A DNA stretch of 64,000 bases, from the IMG/VR virus record IMGVR_UViG_3300037067_004979, positions 10,733 to 74,732 of that record; one strand, given 5' to 3'. Source of the stretch: a virus. Lineage: Duplodnaviria; Heunggongvirae; Uroviricota; Caudoviricetes. The notes below the pieces were generated by a model. It did not search any database and was not told where the DNA came from. It was given only the letters and a program-made list of their open reading frames with translations. Positions 30,215 to 52,587 of the stretch are shown one piece after another (position 1 is the stretch's first letter; every line of letters begins with the position of its first letter). A program made the translations under genes and the position numbers.

Positions 30215-30221
30215 GTATTTA

Positions 30222-30584: not shown

Positions 30585-30602
30585 ATATCACCTCATGTTA
30601 TT

Positions 30603-30855: not shown

Positions 30856-30878
30856 CAGCTATCTTAATCCATCTTTAC

Positions 30879-31402: not shown

Positions 31403-31428
31403 ATTATATAACCTCTAGTTAATATGAG

Positions 31429-31590: not shown

Positions 31591-31598
31591 CCATCAAG

Positions 31599-32387: not shown

Positions 32388-32557
32388 TTTTCTTTTCTCC
32401 TATTTATTTTATTTGTTGCTAGTTCTGGTTAGAGACTTGTTGTATGTATGAAAATAACACCTCCTGAAATTTTTTACAGTAATTAATCAATTCAGCCACA
32501 TATAAAAAATTTTACAAAACATAAAAAATATGATACAATAAATTCTGTCCTTCCAAC

Positions 32558-34473: not shown

Positions 34474-35847
34474 GTGGCAGATATTTCATTAGGTGAATAT
34501 TTAGCGCAAGCACAGAGATCCATGGGTGGAGGCCAATTCGGAAGAGTTAGTGGTCCTCTTAGTGGATATCTCTTTGGTCCGGATTTTTTTAGGAAACAGA
34601 CCTATCTTCAGGTAGCGGATACATTTACTGCTACATATGGTAAAAAGGTTTGGGATGCCCTAAATAACAAAACTGTAACATTCAATGCAATTAAAAAAGT
34701 TGATTGGGGTCCTACGGTTGGTTGGCGTCTTAGGACAGATCGTGGTAAGACTGGTGCTTCTTCTGAAACCATAACAAAGCGTTCTCGTCCTGTTACAGAG
34801 ACAGGGTCTCTTCCAACTATAGATGTATCAAATTATGTTGGTGTCTATAGCTATCCAAAGAACATAGTGTCTACCTTTGGTGTGAGCTTGAAATCTCAGG
34901 CTGTGTCAGCACTTGAAGGCGGCATTGGGAACCAATTTGCTGTGGAGCAGGAGGGTGCATCTCGTGACCACATCAAAGAAATAAACCAGGAAATAATGGC
35001 TTCTGGTGGATATCTGATGTCTGGTGGAAGTTCTGATTATGGTATAGTTGGTACTGCTACTGCTACCTTTGCTCTGGCTGATCACTTTAAGATCGGTGAT
35101 GGAGTGGCAAAATCTGGTACTGATACATCCAGGACAGTTACATATGTTACCACAGCTGATGGACATGTAAATGCAACATCTCTCAGTGGTGCAGATGGTT
35201 ATACTGTTTATGTAAAATCAAGGGCTGGTCTTACTAGCATTGATGATATCGTAGCAGATGATTCTCAGAAGATTGGCAATGTAACAACCCCCATAGATGT
35301 ATATAATCTTACCACAAGAACAGCTGGTGGGTATGCTGCTGCAGCCTACTGCAGTGATAATGCAGGTTCTGGCAGAGATCTTACTCTAAAGTTAGTTGAT
35401 CAGTGCTTTGAGAATATACGTCAGAATGGTGGTGAACCAAAACTTATCATAACTGGTCTTGATCAGTATGATAACTTTAACCAGCTTTTACAGGCTCAAC
35501 AGAGATTTGTAGATGTGACTGATTACATTGTTGGTGCTGGGGATGAGAGGACCTACCCTGGAACAAGAGCAGGCTTCCAGCTTGCTACCTACAGGGGTGT
35601 TCCCATTCTTCCTGATCCTGATACTCCAAAATCAATGAGTTCAGCAGATGCCTTACTTGGTAGTAATTTATATGTACTGGATACTGATTATCTGGAAACT
35701 GCTGTCATGTATCCTACTCAGTACATTGAAAATAGAGACTACTTTGCGGCAAATGCTCTTGTGATAAGAGGCATGTTTATCACAATGGCAGAAACCAGGG
35801 CTCTTAGGTTTGATGTACATGCAAAGCTGTCTGACTTAAATACATAA
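34474..35847 (+). CDS. putative major capsid protein
   Basis: 457 aa after scaffold-like gene, RBS AGGAGGTGAG, followed by strong terminator; family not provable by eye. Confidence 0.5.
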   Translation: MADISLGEYLAQAQRSMGGGQFGRVSGPLSGYLFGPDFFRKQTYLQVADTFTATYGKKVWDALNNKTVTFNAIKKVDWGPTVGWRLRTDRGKTGASSETITKRSRPVTETGSLPTIDVSNYVGVYSYPKNIVSTFGVSLKSQAVSALEGGIGNQFAVEQEGASRDHIKEINQEIMASGGYLMSGGSSDYGIVGTATATFALADHFKIGDGVAKSGTDTSRTVTYVTTADGHVNATSLSGADGYTVYVKSRAGLTSIDDIVADDSQKIGNVTTPIDVYNLTTRTAGGYAAAAYCSDNAGSGRDLTLKLVDQCFENIRQNGGEPKLIITGLDQYDNFNQLLQAQQRFVDVTDYIVGAGDERTYPGTRAGFQLATYRGVPILPDPDTPKSMSSADALLGSNLYVLDTDYLETAVMYPTQYIENRDYFAANALVIRGMFITMAETRALRFDVHAKLSDLNT

Positions 35848-35884
35848 TCTGATATTTTAGCATAAGCTAAATAAGTTATATAAT

Positions 35885-35918
35885 ATAGAGAGGCTTAATA
35901 ACCTCTCTATATTTTTGT
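35885..35918 (+). terminator. rho-independent terminator
   Basis: ATAGAGAGG-cttaataa-CCTCTCTAT + TTTTTGTT. Confidence 0.65.
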
Positions 35919-35929
35919 TCAAGGAGATT

Positions 35930-36445
35930 TTAGTGTATTCAAGAGAATTGATGGGAGAAGAAAGATATAATAAAATTAATGAAAAGAGGAAATTAAAAAT
36001 AAGTTTAAATTCAAACAAAGAAGGATGTAGAAATGGACAGAGATTGGGTGTTGAGTCTAGAAGAAAAAATGGTACTAAATGGTCTGTTTATGCAAAAGGT
36101 AGAACAAGTGAAAAATATAAGGGAAGAGTTCCTTGGAATAAAGGACTAACAAAACTAACCGATGCTAGAATTAAGAAACTTGCTGACTCTAAAACTATTC
36201 ATCATGAAAAAATAAATCGCAAGGACTATGGTTGGACTCTTGAACTACGTCAGAAAATTCGTACTAGAGATAATTGGTGTTGTACAAAGTGTGGTAAGAA
36301 TCAACATCATCTAAGGTGGGTATTATGTATACATCATATTGATCTTAACCCTAAAAATAATTCTGAAGATAATCTTATATCAATGTGTAGAGCTTGTCAT
36401 AATGCATTTCATAGTTCTTTATTTCCAAAGCGAAAAAAGTTTTAA
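35930..36445 (+). CDS. HNH homing endonuclease with AP2-like VPWNKGL motif
   Basis: GRVPWNKGLTK; CCTKCGKNQ...HHIDLNPKNN...CRACHN = HNH; very AT-rich insertion between capsid and decoration genes; start ambiguous (TTG 35915 / GTG 35930 / ATG 35951). Confidence 0.65.
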   Translation, partial: LVYSRELMGEERYNKINEKRKLKISLNSNKEGCRNGQRLGVESRRKNGTKWSVYAKGRTSEKYKGRVPWNKGLTKLTDARIKKLADSKTIHHEKINRKDYGWTLELRQKIRTRDNWCCTKCGKNQHHLRWVLCIHHIDLNPKNNSEDNLISMCRACHNAFHSSLFPKRKKF

Positions 36446-36532: not shown

Positions 36533-36874
36533 ATGGGTGCTTTATCCTTAGGTAGTCCCACAATTGTATTTAAGTCTGTTTTTGGTAATAAGAGAGTTGT
36601 GGTTTGTACTCTCACATTTGGGGATGGTTCCTCAACCTGGACATCAGGTGGTTTTGCATTTACACCATCACAGGTTGGTATGACAAAGTTTGAATTTGTG
36701 GCAATTGATGGTGATGGACAGCAATTCTATATCTATGATTACACAAATGAGAAGATTAATGCTTACTTACCTGGGTCTACTACAGGTGCTACATATGTAA
36801 TGGGTTTGGCTAGTGCTAGTACACCTGCTGCAGGAACAATAAGACTTCTTTGTATTGGATATGGTGCATTTTAA
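36533..36874 (+). CDS. 113-aa structural protein (possible head decoration/fibre), tandem duplicate A
   Basis: RBS TAGGAGGT; LTFGDG...FTPSQVGMTKFEFVAIDGDG...TIRLLCIGYGAF. Confidence 0.5.
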   Translation: MGALSLGSPTIVFKSVFGNKRVVVCTLTFGDGSSTWTSGGFAFTPSQVGMTKFEFVAIDGDGQQFYIYDYTNEKINAYLPGSTTGATYVMGLASASTPAAGTIRLLCIGYGAF

Positions 36875-36892: not shown

Positions 36893-37234
36893 ATGGCTGA
36901 TGTAACTTTAGGTAATCCAACCACAATTTTCAGATCCGTATTTGGTAACAAGAGAATTGTAACTGCTACCCTAACTTTTGGTGGTGGTACACTTGATTGG
37001 CCAAAAGAAGGGCTCTCTTTTACACCATCACAACTGGGATTGACTAAATTCGAATTTGTTAAGATAGATTCTGATGGAGAATTTCTCTATTGGTATAATT
37101 ATACAAGTCAGTTAATCATGGCTTTTACAGCGGCTTCAGTTCCTGGTGCTAGTGTATTAAATGTAGTGGTGGATGATGCTCATAAAACATCTTGTACTAT
37201 AAGATTGTTATGTGTTGGTTATGGTGCTGGATAA
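36893..37234 (+). CDS. 113-aa structural protein, tandem duplicate B
   Basis: Colinear with A: LTFGGG...FTPSQLGLTKFEFVKIDSDG...TIRLLCVGYGAG. Confidence 0.5.
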   Translation: MADVTLGNPTTIFRSVFGNKRIVTATLTFGGGTLDWPKEGLSFTPSQLGLTKFEFVKIDSDGEFLYWYNYTSQLIMAFTAASVPGASVLNVVVDDAHKTSCTIRLLCVGYGAG

Positions 37235-37827: not shown

Positions 37828-38010
37828 ATGACTGTTAAGAAGGAAAAGGGAATATCTGTTGGTAAGGTAGTTAAATCTAAGAAAAATAATAAATACCTTG
37901 AGTGTACTTTTTGTGGTAATAAACAAACCACTCTTAATAACCTAGATGAAACTGCATTCTGGTGTACAGTATGTGGTAGATGTAATTTGGCGAGGTGGAA
38001 AGAGGATTAG
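37828..38010 (+). CDS. small zinc-ribbon protein
   Basis: RBS AAGGAGGT; CTFCGNKQ...CTVCGRC. Confidence 0.45.
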   Translation: MTVKKEKGISVGKVVKSKKNNKYLECTFCGNKQTTLNNLDETAFWCTVCGRCNLARWKED

Positions 38011-38384
38011 GCTTAATGGAATGGAGAGATCTAGTACCAATACTGATATCAATATTTACACTAATAATAGGATTTGTTATTCAGTACTTTACCATAATCA
38101 GTAAGATAACTGAGAGATTAAAAGAGGTTGAGATAAAGGTTGAACCATTCTGGAAGATAATTGAGCAGGAGATACCAAAGATACTACACTCTCCCCACAC
38201 TCCAGAATTAGACAGTCTACTGGAAAAGATGATGGCTGGTAACCTAACCAGTGGTGAGGCCTATACTCTAAAGTGTATTTTAAAGAGAGATCTTGATACG
38301 GAATCTGATAAGGTTAGGGCTCTTTCAATGGTTCTTTTAATGGCTAGATTGGAACAATATGATAAGAGGATGTGCATAAAGTGA
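37995..38384 (+). CDS. membrane-anchored hypothetical protein
   Basis: N-terminal TM helix. Confidence 0.4.
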   Translation: MERGLGLMEWRDLVPILISIFTLIIGFVIQYFTIISKITERLKEVEIKVEPFWKIIEQEIPKILHSPHTPELDSLLEKMMAGNLTSGEAYTLKCILKRDLDTESDKVRALSMVLLMARLEQYDKRMCIK

Positions 38385-38698
38385 TACCAATACTAAATTT
38401 AATAGATGTTTTTGCTCTATTGATTGTTACGTCATGTACAATTGTATCATGGAAGATGTATCGATTAATACCAATAAAGCATCTCTTATTTCTATTTGTG
38501 GGGTTTTTGTTACTGATAATAACAAGAATTGGATTTGTTGTTATCAATTATCTGCCTCTTGGTGAGGACGTTATGATAAATAGATTTATTGGTGAAAACA
38601 TGGTGGCCTTTGCAGTAGTTCCCTATACATTTATATTACTTGGATTGTACTTTCTTTATCAGGCGATCAATACATTTATTGGAGGAGATGGTGAGTAA
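38372..38698 (+). CDS. multi-pass membrane protein (holin-like candidate)
   Basis: Three hydrophobic helices in 108 aa. Confidence 0.35.
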   Translation: MHKVIPILNLIDVFALLIVTSCTIVSWKMYRLIPIKHLLFLFVGFLLLIITRIGFVVINYLPLGEDVMINRFIGENMVAFAVVPYTFILLGLYFLYQAINTFIGGDGE

Positions 38699-38990: not shown

Positions 38991-39392
38991 TTGGCTGTAG
39001 TTATTAATAGTGGTTTTACTGAGACTGCCTTACTTATGATCGGTGGGTCTGCTACTGCATTTAAGATCATGGGTCTTGGTACTGGATCTCTAGCAGATAG
39101 TGTTGCACAGACTTCAACAGCTCTTGCTACTCTAATTACTGAGGATAGTGGTTTGTCAAAAGCTACCGCTACCACAGCAGTAGCAAACAGTGCGGTAACA
39201 GGTGATACCTCAACCTTTGAGTATACCTGGACTTCAACAAAGGGTTCTACCGTTAATGTGAAGGAGTGTGGTGTATTTAACAGTGCTGGTTCGCCTGTTG
39301 AGTTATGCTATGGTACCTTTGCAAACGCAATACCTATGGAATCAGGTGATACTCTTAAGGTTTCTTGGTCTGTACAAGTTAAGGGTCCGTAA
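38991..39392 (+). CDS. Ala/Thr/Ser-rich structural protein
   Basis: 133 aa followed by terminator. Confidence 0.45.
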   Translation: MAVVINSGFTETALLMIGGSATAFKIMGLGTGSLADSVAQTSTALATLITEDSGLSKATATTAVANSAVTGDTSTFEYTWTSTKGSTVNVKECGVFNSAGSPVELCYGTFANAIPMESGDTLKVSWSVQVKGP

Positions 39393-39431
39393 AACAAATA
39401 GTTAAAAAAGAGCAGGGTGTTGCTCTATAAA

Positions 39432-39475
39432 ACAGGGTGGAGGTTGATGAGACTTTCGCCCTGTTTTTATTTTTG
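39432..39475 (+). terminator. rho-independent terminator
   Basis: ACAGGGTGG...CGCCCTGT + TTTTTATTTTT. Confidence 0.6.
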
Positions 39476-39490: not shown

Positions 39491-39622
39491 ATGAATATAG
39501 AATTACATGCAGTTAGATATAATCCTAATGTTGCAGGGGATGCCATCACTATAAAAATTAATTGTGATAAGGATGAGTATGCCGCTGCTATGAAACTAAT
39601 AGACAAATTTAAGAATAGTTAA
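39491..39622 (+). CDS. small hypothetical protein (43 aa)
   Basis: RBS AGGAGGT; track ORF 39437 trimmed to this ATG. Confidence 0.35.
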   Translation: MNIELHAVRYNPNVAGDAITIKINCDKDEYAAAMKLIDKFKNS

Positions 39623-39633: not shown

Positions 39634-41679
39634 TTGAAACTCATTTGGCATAGTACCGCAAATTTTGTGGGGACTGGTTATGGTGTAATAACCAGAGACC
39701 TTGTGCATAGAATAAAGAGTCTTGGTCATGATGTAGATATCTACACAAAGCACTTTCTAGGTGGAAACATAGTTGTTGAGGGTGTTAATAACTATGATGG
39801 TACTCAGATGGATGTAATTAATCATAAACTTGAGAGTGAGGGGTACGACTACATTATTACCTTTGGGGATGCTTGGGTGTATCCAGATAGAGTAAATTAC
39901 TACTTTACAAAAAACAAGTGGGTGTCATCTATGTTTTTGGATGTGCAATTTATGCATCCAAGAATGGTAGAGGCCATGAATCAGTGTCAATACCAGTTAA
40001 CTCTTACAAAGCACGGTAAGAGTGAGTTGGAGAGATCTGGATTTAAGCCACTCTATGCACCACTTGGTGTTGACATGAAGAAATTTAGGCCAGATGAGGA
40101 GCTACGTAATTCATTTAGGAAGAAGTATGGTTGGGAGGATAAATTTGTTTATGGTTTTTTAGGTATCAACTATGGTACAGATAGAAAAAATATCATAAAT
40201 CTAATAAAGGCCTTCCAGGCAATAAACAAGAAGCATCCAGAAACAATCCTATACTTGCATACATCTTTGAATGGTGCACCAACAAGTGGTTTACCAATAG
40301 ACTGGATACTTCAATCATGTGGATTTCCAGTAGATAATACTGGTCCAGTTAGGTTTTGTAACCAGGATGACTACAGGACCTGGGTTATATCTCAAGATGA
40401 ACTTGTTGGTCTCTATAATGCATTTGATGTATTTGCATTCCCAACACAGGGTGAGGGATTTGGTATGCCAATTGTTGAGGCTCAGGCTTGTGGTTGTCCG
40501 ATCATAACAACTGATACCACAAGTGGTGGGGAGCTATTTAAGAGTGGTTGGTTAATTCCAATTGATGATGATGATTATGAGTTCTCCACACATAAGTCAT
40601 GGTTTGCCAAGGTTAGATTAAATAAGATTTATGAATATATGGAGAAATCCTATAATGATGTTAAAGCTGATACTGATAATATTCTAAGAAAAAATGCAAG
40701 AAATAATATACTTGAGTATGATATAGATACAGTATTTAATAAGTATTGGGTACCAATGCTAAACTTCCTTGAAGAGGCCAAGAAAACCCCTGTTAAGTTA
40801 CCAAACTGGACAAAGGAGATATATAGTGTTTGTGGTGGTAGAATATATCCTGACGCAGGGGATTGTGGGGCCTATCACTCATGTGATAGACAGTGTGATA
40901 AATTAAATCTATTTAGATTTCCATGTGAACCTCTTACAGAGGGTAGAAGTTTAATGATGAGAAGTTATCCATTATTCCCAGATAGAGATATGAAGGACAT
41001 GCTTATAGATTCTAGATGTCCAATGTCTAAGTGGGTAGCTGAGAGATTTACAGATGAGGTAAATGCTGCATGGGATAGAGTTATTGAGTACCCATCTCTA
41101 AGAAGATTCTATAAGGATAAGTGTGATGAGGGATTCTTTGATAACTTTGTTACCTCTAAATTGAAAGATAGAAACCTTAATTTTGATTCTGAGTATTCAA
41201 GGATCTTTTCTCTGCCATGGACAACCATATTTCAGGTAAGTGAAGAGGTTATAAATTTCTTTAGTGATTGCAAGCAGGTTCTTGATATTGGTTCTGGGGA
41301 AGGCAAGATAGTTAGAGCTCTTAATGATAGAGGAATAAATACAAAGGGTCTTGAGATAAACAGGGATAGAGTTGATAATAATCTAATTCTTTATGGTAAT
41401 GTTACAGATATACCATATGGGGATAAGACAATAGATGGCATAATTTGTATTGATACACTAGAGCATATCAGTGATCCTATCAAGGCCTTAAGAGAGATAT
41501 TTAGGGTAGCTAGAAAACGTGTTTTAATACAGGTTACATCTCTTAATTCGTGGGCTTTCAGAGAGGATCCTACACACGTTGTAAAGTGGCAGGATTACAG
41601 ATGGTGGAGAGAGATAGCTGAATTTGGTAGGATTATCAAGAAGGACGGCCAGAGGTTCTATGTGGAGGTAGTAGACTAA
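39634..41679 (+). CDS. GT4 glycosyltransferase fused to C-terminal class I SAM methyltransferase
   Basis: TTG start after AAGGAGGT; EGFGMPIVEAQACGCPIITTD (GT4 E-x7-E); Cys-rich middle; VLDIGSGEGKIV...D methyltransferase motif I. Confidence 0.65.
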   Translation: MKLIWHSTANFVGTGYGVITRDLVHRIKSLGHDVDIYTKHFLGGNIVVEGVNNYDGTQMDVINHKLESEGYDYIITFGDAWVYPDRVNYYFTKNKWVSSMFLDVQFMHPRMVEAMNQCQYQLTLTKHGKSELERSGFKPLYAPLGVDMKKFRPDEELRNSFRKKYGWEDKFVYGFLGINYGTDRKNIINLIKAFQAINKKHPETILYLHTSLNGAPTSGLPIDWILQSCGFPVDNTGPVRFCNQDDYRTWVISQDELVGLYNAFDVFAFPTQGEGFGMPIVEAQACGCPIITTDTTSGGELFKSGWLIPIDDDDYEFSTHKSWFAKVRLNKIYEYMEKSYNDVKADTDNILRKNARNNILEYDIDTVFNKYWVPMLNFLEEAKKTPVKLPNWTKEIYSVCGGRIYPDAGDCGAYHSCDRQCDKLNLFRFPCEPLTEGRSLMMRSYPLFPDRDMKDMLIDSRCPMSKWVAERFTDEVNAAWDRVIEYPSLRRFYKDKCDEGFFDNFVTSKLKDRNLNFDSEYSRIFSLPWTTIFQVSEEVINFFSDCKQVLDIGSGEGKIVRALNDRGINTKGLEINRDRVDNNLILYGNVTDIPYGDKTIDGIICIDTLEHISDPIKALREIFRVARKRVLIQVTSLNSWAFREDPTHVVKWQDYRWWREIAEFGRIIKKDGQRFYVEVVD

Positions 41680-42806
41680 TGAAGATAATGTGGTCTTTTA
41701 TATCTCCATTAACACCATTTGGGTATGGTGTTGTTAGTAAGAACATGGTTCCAAGAATGATGGCAGATGGGCATGAGGTCATTGTTTGTGCATCACAGTA
41801 TGTTGGTCATCCAATGCAATATAATGGCATGAATATGATTTCCTTTCTTGATTGGCATGTGGTTAGGAATCTGTGTGATCACTTTGGTGTGGATTATATC
41901 TTTGATCTGTATAACTATAAGTTACCAGAGCAGCCACACTATAGAGACTGGGTAATGTGTGCAGCAATGGATTTTCCCTTTATGTATGATAGATATGCTG
42001 GACACATAAATGAGTTGGCTTCTCATGTGATAGCACCATCTAAACATAACATTAAGGAAATAAAGAGATTTGGGTTTAATCCTACATATGCTCCCTGGGG
42101 AGTTGATACAAAGTTATATAGACAGGATATGGATGCCAGAAAGAGAAAGAGAGATTCACTAAAGATAGATGATGATGTATTCATTGTTGGTACTGTGGGG
42201 GCAAACATATTTGATGATAGAAAAAATCTATTCAATACAATAAGAGCATTTAATAAGTTAGCCTCAGTTCATCCGGATGTGGCTCTATATATACACTGTT
42301 ATTTACATTCATCTTTACCATTGCTTAGATTTATTCAAACCAGTGGTTTTTCAGATAGAATTTACTATCCAGATCAGAGAAAGATAGAGCTGATGTCTAT
42401 ACAGGATGAGGAGATGGTAGATACATATAATGCAATGGATGTATTTGTCTGTGCTTCAAAGGGTGAGTCCTTTTGTTTACCTCTTGTTGAGGCACAATCC
42501 TGTGGTGTACCAGCCATAGTGACTGATACAACTGCCTTACCAGAGATGCTATATGGTGGATGGAAAATACCAGTTGATGAGGACGACTATGAATGGGCAT
42601 ACTTTGGTGGATGGTGGCCTAAGGTAAGGGCACAAAGTATATATGAACAGATGGAAATAGCTTATCAGGAGTGGAAAACTGGGACCATACAGTGTGAATC
42701 AGAAAGAGCTGAGCAGATCAGAACAGAGTTTGATTGGGATGTTGTCTATGATAAGCATTGGAAGCCTCTTTTAAAGGATCTGGAGAGTAAAAAATGCACC
42801 TTATAG
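41679..42806 (+). CDS. GT4 glycosyltransferase
   Basis: GESFCLPLVEAQSCGVPAIVTD; paralog of N-domain of previous. Confidence 0.65.
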   Translation: MKIMWSFISPLTPFGYGVVSKNMVPRMMADGHEVIVCASQYVGHPMQYNGMNMISFLDWHVVRNLCDHFGVDYIFDLYNYKLPEQPHYRDWVMCAAMDFPFMYDRYAGHINELASHVIAPSKHNIKEIKRFGFNPTYAPWGVDTKLYRQDMDARKRKRDSLKIDDDVFIVGTVGANIFDDRKNLFNTIRAFNKLASVHPDVALYIHCYLHSSLPLLRFIQTSGFSDRIYYPDQRKIELMSIQDEEMVDTYNAMDVFVCASKGESFCLPLVEAQSCGVPAIVTDTTALPEMLYGGWKIPVDEDDYEWAYFGGWWPKVRAQSIYEQMEIAYQEWKTGTIQCESERAEQIRTEFDWDVVYDKHWKPLLKDLESKKCTL

Positions 42807-43588
42807 TATTCCCAACTTTTAGATGTGGATTAAACTGTCCTTACTGTAGTTATATACATGATGGTGATAAATTGATCTTTCGTGGTTCTGGCATGGAGTT
42901 CGATCAGAATAGTATAATTAGTGCCAGTGAATGGATAGATATTTTCAATCAACAAAGAGCAGATATAATTGAATTTTCAGGGGGAGGTGAGCCATATAAA
43001 CATCCAGAGATACTTTCCATATTATCAGGGGTTCCTAGTAAATGGGCAATCACATCAAACACTCTTAATTCAAAAATTAATGAAACAGATTTATCTAAGT
43101 GTTGTTTATGGACTGCTAGTTTTCATCCACAGGTGTCAGACAAGGCAAAAATAACATTTTTTAATAATATACACTTTATAGCATCAAAAGTACCAACTTC
43201 TGTTACTCTAGTAGCAACACCACAAAGAATACAAGAGACTCTCCAGTGGGCTAATAGAATTCATAATATGGGTTTTAGAGTAAATATACATCCCTACTAT
43301 GATGATAGGGAGTTTAGTTGGTATGATTATCCAAACGAACTAGCCTTTCTTAAAAGATCAAAATTTGTGGTTTATGATGAAATGATGTTTAAATATAGTG
43401 GATATAAGAGTCCTAGATTATGTGGGGCTGGTAACAATTATAAGATGTACGGACCAGATGGAAAATCATACAGATGTATGTCTGATTTGATGTTTAAAAG
43501 GGATTCAACAGAAGCTGTTTTTTGTGATAATTTTTGTCCTTTCCCTTGTGATTGGAGTCAAGTGATTAAAGATGATAGAAACATTTAG
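42794..43588 (+). CDS. radical SAM enzyme with Cys-rich C-terminal region
   Basis: FRCGLNCPYCSY (CxxxCxxC), SGGGEP motif; C-terminal C...C...C-x3-C-x3-C. Confidence 0.65.
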   Translation: MHLIVFPTFRCGLNCPYCSYIHDGDKLIFRGSGMEFDQNSIISASEWIDIFNQQRADIIEFSGGGEPYKHPEILSILSGVPSKWAITSNTLNSKINETDLSKCCLWTASFHPQVSDKAKITFFNNIHFIASKVPTSVTLVATPQRIQETLQWANRIHNMGFRVNIHPYYDDREFSWYDYPNELAFLKRSKFVVYDEMMFKYSGYKSPRLCGAGNNYKMYGPDGKSYRCMSDLMFKRDSTEAVFCDNFCPFPCDWSQVIKDDRNI

Positions 43589-44270
43589 ATTTAGAGGTAA
43601 GTCAAATAGTGGTGTTTTCTTTTTTAAGGGTAAACCCTATCAATATTACAATCATACATATAATGCTGTTGGTTTAAATGAAAGAACTATAGAAATACCA
43701 ATAATTAATGGCTACTTTGAGAAATACAGAGGAAAAGATGTATTGGAAATAGGACACACTCTTGGACACTATCTAACTAAATATGATCATGATATAGTTG
43801 ATAAGTGTGAAGAAGCTCCTGGGGTAACCAATGTTGATATAGTAGATTTTGAGCCCACTAAAAAATACGATTTAATATTTTCTATATCTACTATGGAGCA
43901 TGTTGGTAATGATGAGGCTTTTGAGGAAAGCCCAGATAAAGATAAGGTTAAAGTGGCCTTTGATAGGTGTGTATCTTGGTTAAAGCCAGATGGAGCATTT
44001 ATCTGTACTTTCCCACTAGGGTTTAACTATCACCTTGATACTAGAGTTATGAATGGTGAAATAAAGTTTGATGAGTTGTATTGTTTTGGTAGGGAGAGTT
44101 CTACTATCAATCATTGGATATTTACCTCCTTTGAAACAGCTTATAAATCAGATCTTAAGGTAATGAGGACTTCTATTAAAGATATAAATGGTGTTTTACA
44201 GCCATTTACAATATGTTTCTTTGTAGCTATAGGTATAATTTATGGAGGAAATAATGACAGAGAAGAATAA
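43572..44270 (+). CDS. putative SAM-dependent methyltransferase-fold protein
   Basis: DVLEIGHTLGHY, DLIFSISTMEHV, LKPDGAFI resemble MTase motifs I-III; tentative. Confidence 0.4.
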   Translation: MIETFRFRGKSNSGVFFFKGKPYQYYNHTYNAVGLNERTIEIPIINGYFEKYRGKDVLEIGHTLGHYLTKYDHDIVDKCEEAPGVTNVDIVDFEPTKKYDLIFSISTMEHVGNDEAFEESPDKDKVKVAFDRCVSWLKPDGAFICTFPLGFNYHLDTRVMNGEIKFDELYCFGRESSTINHWIFTSFETAYKSDLKVMRTSIKDINGVLQPFTICFFVAIGIIYGGNNDREE

Positions 44271-44913
44271 ACATATTCCATGGAATAGAGGTCTTACTAA
44301 GTATTCAGACAACAGAATTATGAAAGTTTCTATTGAAATGTCCGGGAAAATTAGATCAAAGGAACACAGTTTAAATATTTCTCTATCTAAAATTGGTGTA
44401 AAAAATATAAAAAAATCTATACAAATGAAAGATAATTCTAGTGGTTCTAAGAATTTATTCTATGGTCATCATCATACACAAGAAACTAAAAACAAGATTA
44501 GTATTGCAAATAAAGGTAGAAGATACCCAGGCAGAAAATTACCCTCTCTTATGGGAAATAATAACCCATCTAAACGTCCGGAAGTAAGATTATTGATAAG
44601 TAAGAGAGTTAGTGAAACTCATTGGAATACTTCCTTAGAGAAAAATCCTAACTGGAGAGGAGGTATATCTTTTTTACCTTATAAACCTTATAGACATCTA
44701 AAAAATCAAATTATTCATAGAGATAAATCTGATAGATGTCTTTTATGCGGAGAGGACACTAAGGTCCGTGTTATTCATCATATAGATTATATTAAGGTAA
44801 ATAATAATTTAAATAATCTATGTATATTATGTAATAGTTGTAATTCTAAAGTTAATAAAAATAGGTCTTATTGGGAAAACTATTTTGTTGGGAGGATTAA
44901 AGATGGAGTATAA
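44242..44913 (+). CDS. HNH homing endonuclease (AP2-like IPWNRGLTK)
   Basis: IPWNRGLTKYSD; CLLCGED...HHIDY...N...CNSCN HNH motif; AT-rich insertion in glycan cluster. Confidence 0.6.
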   Translation: MEEIMTEKNKHIPWNRGLTKYSDNRIMKVSIEMSGKIRSKEHSLNISLSKIGVKNIKKSIQMKDNSSGSKNLFYGHHHTQETKNKISIANKGRRYPGRKLPSLMGNNNPSKRPEVRLLISKRVSETHWNTSLEKNPNWRGGISFLPYKPYRHLKNQIIHRDKSDRCLLCGEDTKVRVIHHIDYIKVNNNLNNLCILCNSCNSKVNKNRSYWENYFVGRIKDGV

Positions 44914-45910
44914 ATTTACTTCAGAAGTACAAATGAACTATGAACACAGTAAGAAAAAATTAATTTCTTGTATATCTGGGGTTAATGGACAAGATGGTTC
45001 GTTTTTGGCTGAAATATTGTTAGAAAAAGGGTACGAAGTACATGGGATACTGCGTAGAAGTAGTGTTTCTAATACAAAAAATATAGATCATATAAAGAAT
45101 AATATATACTTACATGTGGGTGATGTAAATGATTCTAATTTTATTAATACTATACTCTATGATATACAACCAAATGAGTTTTATCATTTAGCTGCTCAGA
45201 GTCATGTCGGGTTAAGCTTTGATATCCCCATTTATACAGCTGAAACTGTTGCTATAGGTACATTAAATGTTCTCGAATCTGTAAGAAAATATTCCCCATT
45301 CACTAAAATATATTATGCGGGGACTTCTGAGTTATATGGCTCAGCTAAACCTCCTCAGAATGAAAATACTTTAATGCATCCCAATAGTCCATATTCTATA
45401 TCAAAGTTATTTGGTTTTGAGATGTCTAGATTATATAGAAAATCATATAATTTATTTATATCATGTGGCATACTTTTCAACCACGAATCTGAACGCAGAG
45501 GTGATGAATTTGTAACACAAAAAATTGTTAAGGGGTTGATAAACTGTAAATTAGGCAAACAAAAAAAGTTATACTTGGGCAATCTAGATGCTAAGAGAGA
45601 TTGGGGTTATGCAAGAGATTACTGTGAAGCTATGTGGATGATGCTTCAGCATGGAGAAGCAGATGATTTTGTTATAGGGACTGGAGAATCTTATTCAATA
45701 AGAGATTTTTTAAATGTTACTGGAGACTATGTTAAGATAGATTGGAAGGACTATGTTGAAATTGATTCTAATTTATTCAGACCCACTGAAACTGAGTACC
45801 TATTGGCAGCTCCCGGTAAGGCCTTCAGTAAGTTGGGTTGGAGACCTAAGGTTAGATTTGAACAATTGGTAAGAATTATGGTTGATGCACAGATAAATTT
45901 GGAGGTATAA
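44903..45910 (+). CDS. gmd: GDP-mannose 4,6-dehydratase
   Basis: ISGVNGQDGSFLAEILLEKGYEVHGILRRSS (Rossmann GxxGxxG), YSISK, catalytic region; start moved to ATG 44903 after GGAGGATTAAAG. Confidence 0.75.
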   Translation: MEYKFTSEVQMNYEHSKKKLISCISGVNGQDGSFLAEILLEKGYEVHGILRRSSVSNTKNIDHIKNNIYLHVGDVNDSNFINTILYDIQPNEFYHLAAQSHVGLSFDIPIYTAETVAIGTLNVLESVRKYSPFTKIYYAGTSELYGSAKPPQNENTLMHPNSPYSISKLFGFEMSRLYRKSYNLFISCGILFNHESERRGDEFVTQKIVKGLINCKLGKQKKLYLGNLDAKRDWGYARDYCEAMWMMLQHGEADDFVIGTGESYSIRDFLNVTGDYVKIDWKDYVEIDSNLFRPTETEYLLAAPGKAFSKLGWRPKVRFEQLVRIMVDAQINLEV

Positions 45911-45911
45911 T

Positions 45912-46631
45912 ATGCCAGGTTTTGGTTGGGTTAAGGATAAATTTGATATCAGAGATTTTAATGTCAGGAGTTTAATTACTCCAGAGAAAAAGCAAGCTCT
46001 GCTACCAAATCACTTCGTTGTCTATGATGGTACAATCATATATGATCAGGGTCAGACATCAAAGTGTGTTGCATACTCTGCTAGTGGTGTTAAGACAGAT
46101 CAGGAATTTATACAGTATGGTAAGCAATATCGATTTGATGCAAACTGGCTCTATTCTGAGTGTAAGAAGATAGATGGCATACCAAATGAAAATGGCACGT
46201 ATCCCAGAATAGCCTGTAAAATACTTCAGGAAAAGGGTGATAAACTAGATACATCAAATCTGTGCTTTCTTAAGAAAATGGTATCTGGTCCAGATAAAAA
46301 GTGGGGCATAGATTCCTACTATAGGATAGATATATCAAATACAGATGAGGACATCAAGCAAATTCTGTTTTCCTATGGTAGTTTTATAGCTGCATCATCA
46401 TGGTATAGCAATTGGATGGATAAGTTTACTGAGTTTCCAGAACCAAATGGCATTGTTGATGGTGGCCATGCCTATCGAATAATTGGCTGGAATGAAAAGG
46501 GCTGGATAATTGCTAACTCATGGGGTACCATTCTATGGGGTGACGGTGGTAAGGCAACAATGTCATATGATATTTTTAGAAGAAGGGTATTGTCTGAAGG
46601 CGACTGCTGGAAGCTAGTCGATTCAAAATAA
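45912..46631 (+). CDS. papain-like (C1 family) cysteine peptidase
   Basis: QGQTSKCVAYSA (Gln...Cys), GGHAYRIIGW (His), NSWG (Asn-Ser-Trp). Confidence 0.6.
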   Translation: MPGFGWVKDKFDIRDFNVRSLITPEKKQALLPNHFVVYDGTIIYDQGQTSKCVAYSASGVKTDQEFIQYGKQYRFDANWLYSECKKIDGIPNENGTYPRIACKILQEKGDKLDTSNLCFLKKMVSGPDKKWGIDSYYRIDISNTDEDIKQILFSYGSFIAASSWYSNWMDKFTEFPEPNGIVDGGHAYRIIGWNEKGWIIANSWGTILWGDGGKATMSYDIFRRRVLSEGDCWKLVDSK

Positions 46632-46640: not shown

Positions 46641-47414
46641 ATGAAGGATAATTTAGATCAAATCATCGTAGCACTGTGTTCACTTGCTGCGGCAATAATT
46701 CTGTTTGTTTGGCCAGATAAGACACAGCTTGCAGGGTTGATAACCAGTACAGTTGGTCCTACTCTGTCAATTGTTGTTGGTATAATCTATACCTGGATTG
46801 CTGGTAGTCAGAAGATTGAGGTTGCTAAGCAGAGGACTGCTGAATTGCAGTACAAGTTAGCAATGCTTAGTCCGAAGGGAACTGGTGCAAAACCATCTGC
46901 AAGTACAATCCCAACATATACCTATACCAGTAAGGATGTTGAGATTGTTGAGAGTGAGGCAAAGGCAGATATTCAAGGTAACTCTCTAACTGTAGATAAG
47001 CTAAATTTTGCAGAGTATAACTATACTCACATGTCTAACTATGACTTGAGGCCTGTTGCAAGGGAGTTAAGGGTAGACCTAGCTAAGGAATTTCTTGATA
47101 ATGAGGTCTCACTGTTGAACGATGCCTGGGTGTTTGCTACAAACATTCAGACTCCACCAACTCCAGAGCAGGCGGCTAGTAAGTCAACAAGCATGTACTA
47201 CTTCAAGAAGGAGTGGGAAAAGGCAAATGGTCTTAAGTGTGGAGACAATGTGTATACCACAATGTCTACGCTGCTTGGGTACTACAATGGAACATACTCA
47301 GCTCTTTCTGGTGTAGAATCACTCATAGGCAAGACTGTTGATTACAGTGTGTTTGGGGGTGGTATGTTTAGTCCGACCTCACTGGGTTGGGAAGCTGCAA
47401 ACCTAGTTGTATAG
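46641..47414 (+). CDS. membrane-anchored hypothetical protein
   Basis: RBS AGGAGGAAAA; N-terminal TM helix. Confidence 0.45.
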   Translation: MKDNLDQIIVALCSLAAAIILFVWPDKTQLAGLITSTVGPTLSIVVGIIYTWIAGSQKIEVAKQRTAELQYKLAMLSPKGTGAKPSASTIPTYTYTSKDVEIVESEAKADIQGNSLTVDKLNFAEYNYTHMSNYDLRPVARELRVDLAKEFLDNEVSLLNDAWVFATNIQTPPTPEQAASKSTSMYYFKKEWEKANGLKCGDNVYTTMSTLLGYYNGTYSALSGVESLIGKTVDYSVFGGGMFSPTSLGWEAANLVV

Positions 47415-47474: not shown

Positions 47475-48968
47475 ATGGCAACAACCTTTCTGGTACCAAA
47501 GAATAATGCTGCTACAACTCTAAATGGGGATATAAATAACTCTGTAACCTCAATAGTGGTGACAGCTAGCTCTGTGTTTCCAACTACCTATCCATTTCAT
47601 ATCACAATTGATAGCGAGATCATGGAGGTTAATAATAATAACACAGGGACAAACACACTCACAGTTGAGGCCAGAAATGGTGATGCAGCAAAGTGTGAGG
47701 GTACTGCTGCAGCAACACACTCAAGTGGGGCTGTTGTTAGGTTAAATATCACAGCAAAGGCTATCAGTGATATCAGTACTGCAGTAAATACATTAGAGGG
47801 CTGTGTTTATCCAAGTGGTTCTACTTTTCCAACTGGTTCTACCGGTATGCTCTTTACACACTCTGTTACTGGAAGAAGTATCCTATATGAGTATGATGGT
47901 TCTTCGTGGATACCTTTATATTCTATTGGAGCCATGACGGTTTATGTTGATTCTACTGATGGAACAGATGATAGAGACCATGGTACTGCAGTAGATGCTT
48001 CAGCATTTAAAACTATACAATATGCTATAAATCAAATACCGCCTATATTTACTGGTAATGTATCTATTTATATAGCTGCTGGTACATATGCTGAAAGTAT
48101 TGGTGTTGTGGGTAAAACACCAAGTGGTTCTTATACTATTTCAATATATGGAACATTAATTGCTCATGATGCTGAAAATCAAATAATGGATGGTGATGGT
48201 GTAAAAGGAGCAACTACTTCTCAATCTTCAGTACATAAGCATGGTCTATCTGCTGATCATTATCAGAATCAATTAATTAAGTTTACAAGTGGTACAAATA
48301 ATAATTTATATAGAATAGTAGACAGTAATACTACTACAGATTTAATTTTGGTTGGTACCACATTATCAGCACAGCCGTTAACTGGTGATACCTTTACTAT
48401 CTACGATTGGGGAACTATAATAACAACCGTGACTATATCAGATTCACAAAATTTTGTTTATTTATATGATTTAAAGGTAGATGCTAGTTCAGCAGCAGCA
48501 CTTACGGTCGGTTTGAATGCTGTGGTTTATATAAATCGTTGTTGGTTTAATGGCTCTGGATTTTTATTTTATTCACAACGGAGAGGATCAATAAAACCAT
48601 ACTGGTCATTTCTTTCTTCTACCACAGGTAGCGTAGTTGGATATCATTGTGAAAATTCTCTTTGTGAATATAAAAGTTGTAAGGTTACAGTTACAAACGG
48701 TACAGGATTAACTTCTGCTAGTTGTTCATATGTAGATATTAATGCTTGTGTGATAGACGGTATTACGAAAGCAACTCAAGTAGGAATATCTTCAACTGGT
48801 GTTTCTTCATTTGTTTGTTCAGGTAGCCCTTATAATATTATCAGACATTTAGGAACAGGTGTAACTGCTTCTACAGGAGGTCAAGTTACAGGTACATCAG
48901 CTAATGTTTATACTGATAATACAGCAGATGAGTCTGCTACAGCGGCTTCATATGGATATATAGATTAA
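47475..48968 (+). CDS. putative tailspike/fibre with right-handed beta-helix (pectate-lyase-like) domain
   Basis: RBS TAGGAGGATGA; TIQYAINQIPPIFTGNVSIYIAAGTYAE; Thr/Ser/Gly-rich. Confidence 0.45.
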   Translation: MATTFLVPKNNAATTLNGDINNSVTSIVVTASSVFPTTYPFHITIDSEIMEVNNNNTGTNTLTVEARNGDAAKCEGTAAATHSSGAVVRLNITAKAISDISTAVNTLEGCVYPSGSTFPTGSTGMLFTHSVTGRSILYEYDGSSWIPLYSIGAMTVYVDSTDGTDDRDHGTAVDASAFKTIQYAINQIPPIFTGNVSIYIAAGTYAESIGVVGKTPSGSYTISIYGTLIAHDAENQIMDGDGVKGATTSQSSVHKHGLSADHYQNQLIKFTSGTNNNLYRIVDSNTTTDLILVGTTLSAQPLTGDTFTIYDWGTIITTVTISDSQNFVYLYDLKVDASSAAALTVGLNAVVYINRCWFNGSGFLFYSQRRGSIKPYWSFLSSTTGSVVGYHCENSLCEYKSCKVTVTNGTGLTSASCSYVDINACVIDGITKATQVGISSTGVSSFVCSGSPYNIIRHLGTGVTASTGGQVTGTSANVYTDNTADESATAASYGYID

Positions 48969-52247: not shown

Positions 52248-52587
52248 GATTGGATGGCGTGTGTATTTTGATGATAATTCAGTACTCTCTCAATATAAGA
52301 TAAATTCATTAACTGAAACGTCATACTCAGAGGTAATAGAAAAGAGTAAAGCCTGTAATATAACTAGAATTGATTGGTTATATTACATTGGTATGGACTC
52401 CACAAATATTGAGATATTCTCTACTGTGGTTGAAGATGGGTCTGTTGCAGAAGTATTTAGTAGACACTATATTACCGGATCTAATGAGGTTATTGAATAC
52501 TGTGTTGCACTAAGTAAAAATGGTGTAAAGACAGTCTATTATATTTCACCAGATGGTAGTATCAAGACTGAAGTAACAAATGGATAA
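52234..52587 (+). CDS. hypothetical protein
   Basis: 117 aa. Confidence 0.4.
   Translation: MMKYKIGWRVYFDDNSVLSQYKINSLTETSYSEVIEKSKACNITRIDWLYYIGMDSTNIEIFSTVVEDGSVAEVFSRHYITGSNEVIEYCVALSKNGVKTVYYISPDGSIKTEVTNG

Follow-up and report, generated by a model that had tools for sequence, protein, structure and literature searches.

A glycan-gene cluster within the structural module

What would a tailed phage make with a run of sugar-active enzymes encoded among its head and tail genes? The question is raised by the virus record IMGVR_UViG_3300037067_004979 (Caudoviricetes), of which a stretch of 64 kb, here called the window, was analysed. ORFs on one strand fill positions 39634-46631 at the coordinates given below, and this glycan-gene cluster lies, as a first-pass annotation had proposed, within the structural module, with the gene for the major capsid protein (MCP) on one side and that for the tail tube on the other. 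The gene identities given there are likewise borne out by Pfam and PHROG profiles, motifs and folds. The features are:

34474-35847: MCP, SU10-type
38991..39392, + strand: p133, a virion fibre protein (Pfam Gp80, 'podophage GP4 fiber I' family), from Pfam homologues
39429..39475, + strand: intrinsic-terminator-like hairpin, a 17-bp stem followed by TATTTTT
39492..39622, + strand: 43-aa ORF with a strong SD site
39634..41679, + strand: GT-MT fusion, with a GT4-type glycosyltransferase (GT), a Cys-rich linker and a class-I SAM methyltransferase (MT); Pfam, phrog_2170, motifs
41679..42806, + strand: second GT4-type GT; Pfam, phrog_2170, EX7E motif
42794..43588, + strand: twitch-type radical-SAM enzyme (rSAM), 264 aa; motifs, PHROG, fold
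43572..44270, + strand: p232, a class-I methyltransferase-fold protein, from its fold
44242..44913, + strand: HNH homing-type endonuclease, between p232 and Gmd; PHROG families
44903..45910 (first listed as 44885-45910), + strand: Gmd, GDP-mannose 4,6-dehydratase; Pfam, PDB similarity, motifs
45912..46631, + strand: papain-family C1 cysteine peptidase; Pfam, phrog_16701, active-site motifs
61101-62147: tail tube

The first-pass annotation had treated the seven enzyme genes as one cluster. All seven are real, but the conserved unit comprises five of them, with the HNH and C1 peptidase genes standing outside it. The five-gene core of GT-MT, GT4, rSAM, p232 and Gmd recurs at 38-74% identity in six related loci (L001, L002, L003, L005, L006 and L013), again with the gene of an SU10-type MCP on one side and the tail-tube gene on the other, and directly after a fibre gene.

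The HNH protein matches seven PHROG HNH families (up to 7.5e-8), with NUMOD3 borderline at 20.2 against a cut-off of 20.4. Its HNH residues are visible ('CLLCG...HHID...N...CILCNSCN'), including the CxxC pairs, and its presence is sporadic, the p232-Gmd junction of L001 and L002 lacking it; we thus class it as an HNH homing endonuclease. The GC minimum of the cluster (0.29) falls in the 44-45 kb bin that holds this gene, which is a selfish insertion specific to the window and no functional part of the module. The C1 peptidase scores 30.9 bits against Peptidase_C1 (PF00112; cut-off 20.7) and 1e-16 against phrog_16701, and its 'QGQTSKC', 'GGHA' and 'ANSWG' motifs align to 3ois and cathepsin B, giving the Gln/Cys/His/Asn set; it has neither a signal peptide nor a TM segment. 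Among the related loci a homologue was found only in the distant L006, inside the cluster there and at 25% identity, and the peptidase is a variable accessory.

Two paralogous glycosyltransferases

In the GT-MT fusion the GT4 domain spans approximately residues 1-380, followed by a linker with four conserved Cys and the MT domain at approximately residues 540-681. The fusion matches Glycos_transf_1 (1e-13), Methyltransf_11 (3.7e-13) and phrog_2170 (8e-37), and the second GT4, a paralogue of its GT domain (E = 7e-71), gives similar values (Glycos_transf_1 8e-13; phrog_2170 1.8e-36). Both score 48-52 bits against gathering cut-offs of ~26-27 (PF00534/PF13692) and both have conserved EX7E motifs ('EGFGMPIVE' in the fusion, 'ESFCLPLVE' in the second enzyme), as for GT4-type (GT-B) enzymes. 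The C-terminal domain of the fusion is a class I SAM-dependent MT with an invariant motif I pattern ('VLDIGSGEG'), scoring 50.4 bits against Methyltransf_11 (cut-off 21.2) and 47.1 bits against Methyltransf_23 (cut-off 27). Orthologues of the fusion in L001-L006 and L013 are 38-72% identical.

A phage radical-SAM family

The signature gene of the module is that of the rSAM, a member of a family seen on phage or viral contigs alone; pattern-seeded scans of 185,579 cellular species genomes gave no confirmed match. The window protein has no Pfam match, the gathering threshold of PF04055 not being reached, and its relatives match this family weakly or faintly, so that radical-SAM membership rests on motifs and fold. 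The motifs are CX3CX2C at residues 11-18 and GGGEP, with C11, C15, C18 and G64-G65-E66-P67 invariant among 23 sequences, and the family has a Cys signature of C103, C210, C228 and C244-x3-C248-x3-C252. Distant members keep the CX3CX2C and GGE motifs, while the fused rSAM domains have CX9CX2C. The protein matches a PHROG radical-SAM family, and its predicted structure shows, at high confidence, a radical-SAM fold with a partial TIM-barrel and a C-terminal Cys-rich auxiliary-cluster domain, as in twitch/SPASM enzymes.

The closest fold is that of the sugar-acting BlsE, and DesII also matches. Twitch/SPASM enzymes that modify peptides or proteins, namely SkfB, PqqE, SuiB, anSME, CteB and EpeE, are close in fold as well, and the N-terminal sequence matches are to PqqE. 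Together with an rSAM gene immediately beside the MCP gene, and a weak match to NCBIfam TIGR04157, a GT family whose name refers to an associated rSAM, this would suit a protein substrate: the rSAM would, for instance, form a thioether or C-C crosslink, epimerise a residue or carry out an oxidation of the formylglycine type, and GT4 would glycosylate the same capsid or fibre protein. We consider this quite unlikely. An RRE (PqqD-like, leader-binding) domain is absent from the rSAM N terminus, since the Cys triad already starts at residue 11, and no conserved small precursor ORF common to the loci was found; a RiPP maturase was rejected on these two grounds. Furthermore, in some fusion proteins the rSAM domain has a GT domain on either side, which fits glycan assembly more easily, and the adjacent MCPs belong to two families (SU10-type and HK97-type) between which no shared motif was noticed, short of a dedicated search.

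The first-pass annotation had also allowed for a C-methylated sugar. To judge from sequence and model, C-methylation by the rSAM is unlikely: neither Pfam, NCBIfam nor fold searches detect a cobalamin-binding domain, and we know of no cobalamin-dependent radical-SAM C-methyltransferase that this 264-aa protein resembles.

The constant pair and its variable partners

Phages of another lineage, unrelated to the first and with HK97-type capsids, have an rSAM+GT4 pair that follows the MCP gene at a distance of 0-1.2 kb and, where the sequence reaches, precedes a gp6-like head-tail connector. This is so in at least 10 loci, with MCPs 30-41% identical to each other, and the pair stands there without Gmd or MT. 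In addition, the two functions are fused in several proteins, as GT4-rSAM (P0114) or as GT4-rSAM-Anp1-like GT-A (L026, P0077, P0109), and phrog_2170 takes in all GTs of these loci. The universal core is the rSAM together with a phrog_2170-type GT4. Around this constant pair the tailoring genes differ by locus: the window has an MT, L019 has a gene resembling those of sulfotransferases, and a further locus has genes of the lectin-like and GDSL kinds; such variation is typical of glycan diversification. The GT4 subfamily is also found behind capsid genes in cultured, unrelated phages: Mae-JY09 and phiPsal1 have a phrog_2170 GT right after the MCP gene, and phiPsal1 adds a SAM-MT and a GT2. In one distant locus (L007) the pair stands beside ParB-like and JAB genes, with no identified capsid gene.

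Gmd and p232

The match of Gmd to GDP_Man_Dehyd (2.5e-114) covers positions 2-332 of the 332-position profile, and its best 11 PDB matches are all GMDs (4e-100 to 7e-88); RMD enzymes come next, at 2e-35. Its score against NCBIfam gmd (TIGR01472), 384.5 bits, is just under the equivalog cut-off of 415, and the GxxGxxG, T-x-E and YxxxK motifs are present as GVNGQDGS, GTSELYG and SPYSISK; by these measures it is divergent but clearly closest to GMD. Translation likely starts at the ATG at 44903, with GGAGG 7 nt upstream. The absence of an Fcl partner, remarked on in the first-pass annotation, holds across the 64-kb window, where no second SDR and no partner reductase or epimerase for Gmd was found.

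The p232 protein has an MT fold, and its C-terminal hydrophobic stretch forms beta-strands in the predicted model. Its methyl transfer is uncertain, because the glycine loop is non-canonical ('LEIGHTLGHY', family consensus 'LEIGNVLSHY') and the score against Methyltransf_23 (18 bits) is below the cut-off of 27. SpnF and SpnL, which have the MT fold and are not methylases, are among its structural neighbours.

The genes for rSAM, p232 and Gmd are neighbours in the window, L001 and L002, and in one further locus rSAM is followed directly by Gmd. This arrangement is what one would expect if Gmd, rSAM and the MT(s) acted in series on a nucleotide sugar, giving a C-/O-methylated or rearranged GDP-6-deoxyhexose for subsequent GT transfer, a coupling much like that first proposed for the locus. 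BlsE, the best fold, and DesII act on nucleoside- or nucleotide-linked sugars, and with no reductase at hand another enzyme must process the 4-keto intermediate. We nonetheless regard such a series as unlikely. The constant partner of the rSAM is GT4: the pair occurs without Gmd, p232 or MT in at least 10 loci, and the rSAM is fused to GTs and not to Gmd. Because of this, the conserved rSAM function must be independent of the Gmd product. The missing cobalamin-binding domain also speaks against C-methylation in such a series, and a lone viral GMD can give a usable donor: the GMD of PBCV-1 is bifunctional and alone can yield GDP-D-rhamnose (PMC5408694).

Virion proteins as the probable acceptors

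Directly upstream of the enzyme genes lies the gene for p133, and a p133-type gene occupies the same position before GT-MT in L001, L005, L006 and L013. The window copy reaches E = 0.019 against PF23140, and the homologues P0055, P0057 and P0059 pass the cut-off. The protein is 95% identical to its L001 orthologue (MCP: 85%), and Ser/Thr make up 27% of its residues; we consider it a candidate glycan acceptor. The hairpin at 39429..39475 parts it from the enzyme genes, and on the + strand between 33 and 50 kb the sole comparable hairpin (35882-35913) follows the MCP gene. Co-expression of the enzymes with the late genes is for this reason an assumption. The 43-aa ORF behind the hairpin has no BLAST homologue in related loci. 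No obvious Ser/Thr-rich acceptor tails were seen on the adjacent capsid proteins.

Virion-protein glycosylation, one of two purposes considered in the first-pass annotation, is the leading reading: the head-side position is kept in many phages, the GT4 subfamily is found post-capsid elsewhere, and mycobacteriophages provide a precedent (PMC11600133). The other purpose, conversion of host surface glycans, survives as a rival, in which O-antigen, capsule or S-layer would be altered, for instance for superinfection exclusion or to block re-adsorption of progeny; GT and Gmd genes in hypervariable structural regions of cyanophages and pelagiphages are usually given this explanation. Gmd is a common phage auxiliary gene, and cyanophage gmd genes are the sole nucleotide-level matches of the region to deposited phages; a cellular p232 homologue sits in a surface-glycan locus with Gmd-like SDRs; and for pelagimyophages, GTs encoded in structural or hypervariable regions have been read as enzymes that modify the O-chain (PMC7029224). 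Yet the membrane components expected for such a function are missing. Pfam and NCBIfam searches revealed no GtrA/B/C-like protein, Wzx/Wzy, priming phosphoglycosyl transferase or ArnT/PMT-like protein, and apart from the C-terminal hydrophobic stretch of p232 the five core proteins lack TM segments, so that the locus does not resemble an O-antigen or seroconversion module. Host-glycan remodelling would also leave unexplained why rSAM+GT4 is found between MCP and connector in two capsid lineages, and why an enzyme presumably useful to cells, if it makes a surface sugar, has no confirmed cellular match. We therefore believe it to be rather unlikely.

DNA could also be considered as the acceptor, with GTs and rSAM placing sugars on phage bases against restriction. 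Phage GTs are known to glycosylate DNA (PMC12619734). QueE-type radical-SAM enzymes occur in phage DNA-modification pathways, and one distant homologue of the rSAM has a weak match to phrog_2076 ('QueE-like'). However, the genes lie in the head/tail module and not in the replication module, QueE is not among the NCBIfam matches of the rSAM, and Pfam and NCBIfam show no adjacent QueC/D, DpdA, hydroxymethylase or other base-modification gene. Nor are we aware of DNA modified with 6-deoxyhexoses that derive from GDP-sugars, and we hold DNA hypermodification to be highly improbable.

Proposed mechanism

From sequence, predicted structures and gene context we suggest, with a probability of roughly 0.55, that the region is a glycosylation island whose enzymes would act in the cytoplasm on virion surface proteins, the rSAM editing a sugar. 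The glycan is most likely an unusual methylated deoxy-sugar, and the acceptor is probably p133, the capsid or capsid decoration proteins; here we infer the protein acceptor, the identity of the sugar, what the rSAM catalyses and when the genes are expressed. Gmd would convert host GDP-mannose to GDP-4-keto-6-deoxymannose, feeding a 6-deoxyhexose donor, and the reduction would be the work of the host or, as in PBCV-1, of Gmd itself. Both GT4 paralogues would assemble the glycan on the protein. The twitch rSAM, with GT4 as its obligate partner, would make a radical edit of a sugar, which may be an epimerisation, oxidation, deoxygenation or decarboxylation in the manner of BlsE, HygY, NeoN and BtrN; its substrate may be the nucleotide-sugar donor or the first protein-linked sugar. 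The GT-fused MT domain, and possibly p232 too, would O-methylate the glycan, as PBCV-1 A064R does. Neither the selfish HNH nor the optional C1 peptidase would play a part.

Relation to known systems

Phage-encoded GTs and an MT within the structural genes make the locus a candidate for the mycobacteriophage-type systems. In mycobacteriophages, MT and GT genes modify capsid and tail-tube proteins (PMC11600133), and clusters F, O and others have, as here, tandem GTs and an O-methyltransferase that are cytoplasmic and encoded in or near the structural genes (Freeman et al. 2023, in the summaries of PMC11600133 and PMC12619734). These summaries mention no radical-SAM or Gmd-like nucleotide-sugar enzyme, both of which are present here. 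The mycobacteriophage glycans are attached at the C-terminal ends of the capsid and tail-tube subunits, but the window shows no evident acceptor tail of this kind. The mycobacteriophage hosts are actinobacteria.

The GT domains of the chlorovirus PBCV-1 are, to our knowledge, not of the GT4 type. With the domain order GT-GT-MT, its A064R first lengthens a capsid glycan that contains 6-deoxyhexose and afterwards O-methylates it (PMC7826918), and PBCV-1 thus has, like this phage, its own multidomain GT-MT enzyme and its own GMD; it differs in being a eukaryotic giant virus that encodes a GMER partner, with no radical-SAM enzyme reported (PMC7826918, PMC5408694). For the rSAM, the relatives are carbohydrate-acting twitch enzymes at 13-14% identity: BlsE (7vob), BtrN (4m7s), DesII (8hzy), SpeY (7wzv), HygY and NeoN (PMC10991966). 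The substrates of these enzymes are small-molecule intermediates of antibiotic pathways in actinomycetes and Bacillus, whereas members of the present family were found only on phage contigs, each with a GT4 as partner or fusion domain, and share a Cys signature of their own. Finally, cyanophage and pelagiphage GT genes also lie in structural or hypervariable regions; the gmd and GT genes of these phages were interpreted as host-LPS modifiers, and no rSAM+GT4 organisation beside a capsid gene was described (PMC7029224).

On the reading preferred here, the island would be a variant of the virion glycosylation already known from mycobacteriophages and chloroviruses.

Organization of the cluster

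The ORF listing of the window shows a tight array on one strand, and each of its seven genes has exactly the coordinates proposed in the first-pass annotation:

39634-41679, plus strand, fusion of a GT4 glycosyltransferase and a methyltransferase (GT-MT), 681 aa
41679-42806, plus strand, GT4 glycosyltransferase, 375 aa
42794-43588, plus strand, radical-SAM enzyme (rSAM), 264 aa
43572-44270, plus strand, methyltransferase-fold protein p232, 232 aa
44242-44913, plus strand, HNH endonuclease, 223 aa
44885-45910, plus strand, GDP-mannose 4,6-dehydratase (Gmd), 341 aa
45912-46631, plus strand, C1 peptidase, 239 aa

Between adjacent genes there are overlaps of 1-29 nt or gaps of 1-9 nt, and GGAGG Shine-Dalgarno sites precede most of the genes. 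The major capsid protein gene (MCP, 34474-35847) lies on one side of the array and the gene of a tail-like protein (47475-48968) on the other, with the tail tube gene further on (61101-62147); the cluster is thus placed inside the structural module, as had been noted. When deposited phages were searched with the DNA of the whole region, the only matches were short cyanophage gmd segments; there is no close cultured relative.

The assignment of two GT4 enzymes, one of them fused to a class I SAM methyltransferase, is borne out: the fusion matches Pfam Glycos_transf_1 and Methyltransf_11/23 and has both the GT4 EX7E motif and methyltransferase motif I (VLDIGSGEG) intact, while the second GT4 (Glycos_transf_1, EX7E present) is a paralogue of the GT domain of the fusion (E = 7e-71). 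Gmd matches Pfam GDP_Man_Dehyd at 2.5e-114, keeps the catalytic motifs and has only GMDs as top matches in the PDB (about 1e-100), with a score slightly below the NCBIfam equivalog cut-off (384.5 vs 415 bits); its translation likely starts at the ATG at 44903. That Gmd comes without an Fcl partner also holds, in that no second SDR (Fcl, Rmd or epimerase) is found anywhere in the 64-kb window; since the window covers 64 kb of a 106-kb contig, a reductase partner could be encoded elsewhere on that contig. The C1 peptidase is above threshold for Pfam Peptidase_C1, and its Gln/Cys, His and Asn motifs align to solved enzymes; the HNH gene has matches to seven PHROG HNH families. The rSAM carries CX3CX2C and GGEP motifs and has no Pfam match, and p232 has a sub-threshold Pfam match to Methyltransf_23 only.

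A five-gene core with passenger genes

The rSAM family is rare, with 24 clusters among 5.8 billion proteins in a word-indexed search. When all window proteins were compared by BLAST with the contigs encoding rSAM homologues, GT-MT, GT4, rSAM, p232 and Gmd were found to be orthologous and co-located in the loci L001, L002, L003/L004, L005, L006 and L013, with identities of 38-74%; in loci with enough flank, the five genes lie 3' of an MCP of the SU10 type and 5' of tail genes. Of the seven-gene unit initially proposed, these five are therefore conserved, whereas the HNH endonuclease and the C1 peptidase are not part of the core.

The HNH gene, already described as inserted in the middle of the cluster, is indeed missing between p232 and Gmd in L001 and L002. 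Because of this absence, its position in the bin of lowest GC within the cluster (0.29) and its distant paralogy (E = 6e-6) to another window-only HNH located after the MCP, we identify it as a homing-type selfish insertion. That second HNH (35915-36445) is directly 3' of the major capsid gene and missing in the syntenic relative L001; both HNHs flank highly conserved genes, as is typical of homing endonucleases. Vsr/DUF559-like endonuclease genes occupy differing junctions of the same cluster in two relatives (L005:10888-11628 and L013:5028-5696), mirroring the window HNH, and selfish nucleases appear to be drawn to the island.

A counterpart of the C1 peptidase occurs in L006 only (25% identity) and at another position within that cluster; we treat the gene as a variable accessory. 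Accessories in other loci include lectin-like and GDSL esterase-like genes and one for a CxxCxxCC protein. This last, a metal-binding protein (PF03692), is found in distant clusters (L005:13462-13944; L006:4332-5324; L013:10851-11291) and is fused to the p232 homologue in L006; L003 has an additional, larger radical SAM (399 aa; L003:7844-9043), and the window has neither of the two. The protein p257 (46641-47414), encoded directly 3' of the C1 peptidase, carries two TM-like segments at its N terminus and lacks homologues in the related loci; the two genes could form a lysis cassette.

The rSAM and GT4 pair beside capsid genes

A single-sequence viral scan with the window rSAM found nothing, and the family profile recovered 13 further viral loci; L012 was added as the most distant word-search match. 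In L012 and L015-L025 the order is an HK97-type MCP (Pfam Phage_capsid), an optional gene, rSAM, GT4 and a gp6-like head-tail connector; of these loci, L015 and L022 are truncated and have only part of that order. These MCPs share only 30-41% identity with each other and belong to a family unrelated to the SU10-type MCP of the window. None of these loci has Gmd, p232 or a methyltransferase, and their GT4s share PHROG 2170 with both window GTs. The nearest cultured members of PHROG 2170 also lie directly 3' of the MCP, in Microcystis phage Mae-JY09 (MCP, hypothetical gene, GT) and Pontimonas phage phiPsal1 (MCP, GT4, SAM-methyltransferase, GT2, neck). In L015, L017 and L018 the protein encoded between MCP and rSAM (190-214 aa) has no family or PDB match. 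In L019, from the HK97-type lineage, a sulfotransferase-like gene (L019:6801-7397, Pfam Sulfotransfer_1, 6e-6) stands between rSAM and GT4, which suggests that the glycan of that lineage may be sulfated, not methylated.

In L014 and L026 (L026:3218-5995), one protein of 925 aa unites GT4, radical SAM and a GT-A domain that is Anp1-like and has a DxD motif; it is followed by a second rSAM of the family and then the tail tube. The same architecture, at about 920 aa, is seen in the proteins P0077 and P0109; P0114 is an independent GT4-rSAM fusion of 654 aa. The radical-SAM motif of the L026 fusion is CX9CX2C in place of CX3CX2C.

Among 1.84 billion representatives (full sensitivity, 50% clustering) 60 proteins belong to the rSAM family at E <= 1e-30, and the number rises to 472 at E <= 1e-10; P0077, P0109 and P0114 come from this search. 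The counts leave out lower-scoring giant B12/SPASM/TPR proteins, which are other rSAM families. One member, P0067 (566 aa), is split by an intein (Intein_splicing, 1.6e-12). Pattern-seeded scans of bacterial and archaeal genomes (185,579 species, one genome per species), in which divergent members can be missed, gave no confirmed cellular member; for the GT-MT family the only match from such scans was a weak one to the GT part, in a Patescibacteria MAG, and its profile had no confirmed matches in IMG/VR.

At least two capsid lineages, unrelated to each other, thus have the rSAM paired or fused with GT4 beside a capsid gene. Because the pair recurs in this position across lineages with varying tailoring enzymes, we conclude that rSAM and GT4 are the conserved functional unit, associated with capsid genes; all contigs on which it was found are from phages or viruses, and the window holds its most elaborate version. 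The pathway initially proposed, in which Gmd, rSAM and methyltransferases would act in series on a nucleotide sugar, is accordingly possible in the window phage but not the conserved function of the family, as most rSAM and GT4 loci lack Gmd.

Fold and possible substrate of the radical-SAM enzyme

The family alignment has the invariants C11/C15/C18, GGEP, TSNT and C103, and an invariant C-terminal cluster, C210...C228...C244-x3-C248-x3-C252; the Cys signature is also kept in distant members and fused domains. A PDB sequence search was not informative, so that a fold search was needed; the AlphaFold model has high confidence (pLDDT 89), and its matches include enzymes acting on sugars, peptides and proteins.

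Fold matches of the rSAM model (enzyme, score, substrate)
BlsE, 17.0 (239/264 residues aligned), nucleoside-sugar (decarboxylase)
SkfB, 15.7, peptide
MoaA, 15.4, small molecule
PqqE, 14.7, peptide
SuiB, 14.4, peptide
DesII, 14.2, TDP-deoxysugar
anSME, 13.7, protein
BtrN, 11.6, aminocyclitol

A BFVD fold search returned generic phage radical SAMs only (TM-score <= 0.64). By itself, the modelled fold would be compatible with either a sugar or a protein as substrate, and an rSAM that crosslinks, epimerizes or oxidizes a capsid or fibre residue would agree with these data. Such a protein-directed enzyme fits less well with the remaining evidence: the window rSAM is without an N-terminal RRE, there is no precursor, and the fusion architecture is harder to reconcile with it. 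No cobalamin-binding domain was detected in the window rSAM. The domain order GT4-rSAM-GT-A favours an rSAM step in glycan assembly, and among the enzymes treated in PMC10991966, carbohydrate radical SAMs of similar size (NeoN, HygY, BtrN) catalyze epimerization, dehydrogenation, dehydration and decarboxylation.

Candidate acceptors and other features of the window

The best-conserved protein of the neighbourhood is p133 (38991-39392), with 95% identity to L001 as compared to 85% for the MCP; it immediately precedes GT-MT in L001, L005, L006 and L013. At family level it matches Pfam Gp80, 'podophage GP4 fiber I protein' (GP4 fibres are among the subjects of PMC11445570), and p133 is on this basis a predicted virion fibre component. 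A tblastn search against phages gave no match and a PDB sequence search nothing informative; the 132-aa protein between MCP and GT of Mae-JY09 was tried as a homologue and is not homologous. Of the terminator-like hairpins on the plus strand, the two strongest lie 3' of the MCP and 3' of p133, a placement that would fit abundant structural transcripts followed by enzyme genes at lower expression.

Tandem paralogues of 113 aa (36533-36874 and 36893-37234) follow the MCP and are kept in L001, L005, L006 and L013; they have no Pfam or PHROG family and are probably capsid decoration proteins, possibly also glycan acceptors. Ser/Thr-rich p133, the MCP and these paralogues are all candidate acceptors, with none singled out; no Ser/Thr-rich C-terminal acceptor tails were found in the adjacent MCPs.

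Two small multi-TM proteins (37995-38698) are encoded 5' of p133. A 1006-aa protein (4340-7360) with a C-terminal DRAT-like ADP-ribosyltransferase domain is followed by a gene (7353-8549) with an anthrax-lethal-factor-like (ATLF) domain; lying among putative virion genes, both may encode ejected effectors. A 530-aa ORF (13059-14651) has an intein splicing domain (Pfam Intein_splicing, 7e-9), and in the tail region a 1009-aa protein (52580-55609) begins with a protease domain (phrog_20754, 3e-61; Pfam NAL1_N). A minus-strand block with inverted GC skew, at about 27000-33500 in an otherwise plus-strand genome, encodes a Band-7/SPFH protein, an HD_4 hydrolase and three tRNAs (Arg-TCT, Ser-TGA, Ile-TAT); outside the block, 16618-16694 is a tRNA-Pro gene.

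Proposed mechanism and alternatives

Based on sequence, predicted structure and gene context, we propose that the island is a cytoplasmic system that glycosylates proteins of the virion surface while virions are assembled. Gmd would provide a GDP-6-deoxyhexose precursor, reduced by Gmd itself or by a host reductase; the two GT4s would transfer the sugars, the rSAM would make a radical edit to a sugar that is still on the donor or has been through the first transfer, and the fused methyltransferase, perhaps with p232, would O-methylate the glycan. A lone viral Gmd can suffice, because the GMD of the chlorovirus PBCV-1 also reduces its own product to GDP-D-rhamnose (PMC5408694); the PBCV-1 enzyme A064R (GT-GT-MT) O-methylates the terminal rhamnose of the capsid glycan (PMC7826918).

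Phage gmd and GT genes are usually read as remodelling host surface glycans (PMC7029224). This explanation is weakened here by the lack of membrane machinery in the module, by the strict linkage to capsid genes across lineages and by the lack of a confirmed cellular rSAM homologue; the core proteins have no TM segments, which is more in keeping with a soluble protein as acceptor than with a lipid-linked glycan of the envelope. The genomic context and the lack of base-modification genes make DNA hypermodification by these enzymes unlikely.

Within the proposed virion glycosylation, we speculate, with a chance of roughly one in four, that rSAM and GT4 represent an undescribed chemistry, so far seen in phages only and dedicated to virion proteins, in which the rSAM acts on a protein-bound sugar or nascent linkage between two glycosyl transfers, as the domain order GT4-rSAM-GT-A suggests. 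If so, the product would be a sugar or linkage beyond ordinary nucleotide-sugar pathways, for example a radical-epimerized, deoxygenated or C-linked residue. We know of no earlier case of a radical-SAM step in protein glycosylation.

The nearest cultured relatives of the MCP are archaeal tailed viruses (haloarchaeal and Methanofastidiosa viruses, 26-29% identity). A bacterial host nonetheless appears to fit better than an archaeal one, because of the strong GGAGG sites before most genes and the canonical intrinsic terminators. The only cellular relatives found for p232 (L010/L011, Ca. Paceibacterota MAG) and for the GT domain (L027, Patescibacteria MAG) are from Patescibacteria/CPR, a weak hint as to host or gene origin.

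Implications for virion glycosylation

Among phages, glycosylation of the virion by the phage's own enzymes has to date been demonstrated in mycobacteriophages, where it affects antibody recognition; among other viruses it is known from the chloroviruses. In the mycobacteriophages, the role of phage-encoded GT and methyltransferase genes is established (PMC11600133, PMC12619734). Judged by its genes, the window locus resembles both systems; it adds a dedicated radical-SAM partner to each and, compared to the mycobacteriophages, also a nucleotide-sugar enzyme. A full-text literature search found no paper on an rSAM and GT4 pair beside capsid genes, and this small twitch radical-SAM enzyme is not known to have been linked to protein glycosylation before.

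If confirmed, the series MCP, rSAM and GT4 would be a simple genomic marker predicting glycosylated virions in metagenomes, and the compact enzymes (264-aa rSAMs and single-chain GT4-rSAM-GT-A proteins) would be available for glyco-engineering of phage particles. Radical chemistry would likewise join the repertoire of protein and glycan tailoring. The locus points to a much wider, environmentally distributed virion glycosylation that may be centred on a small twitch radical-SAM enzyme.
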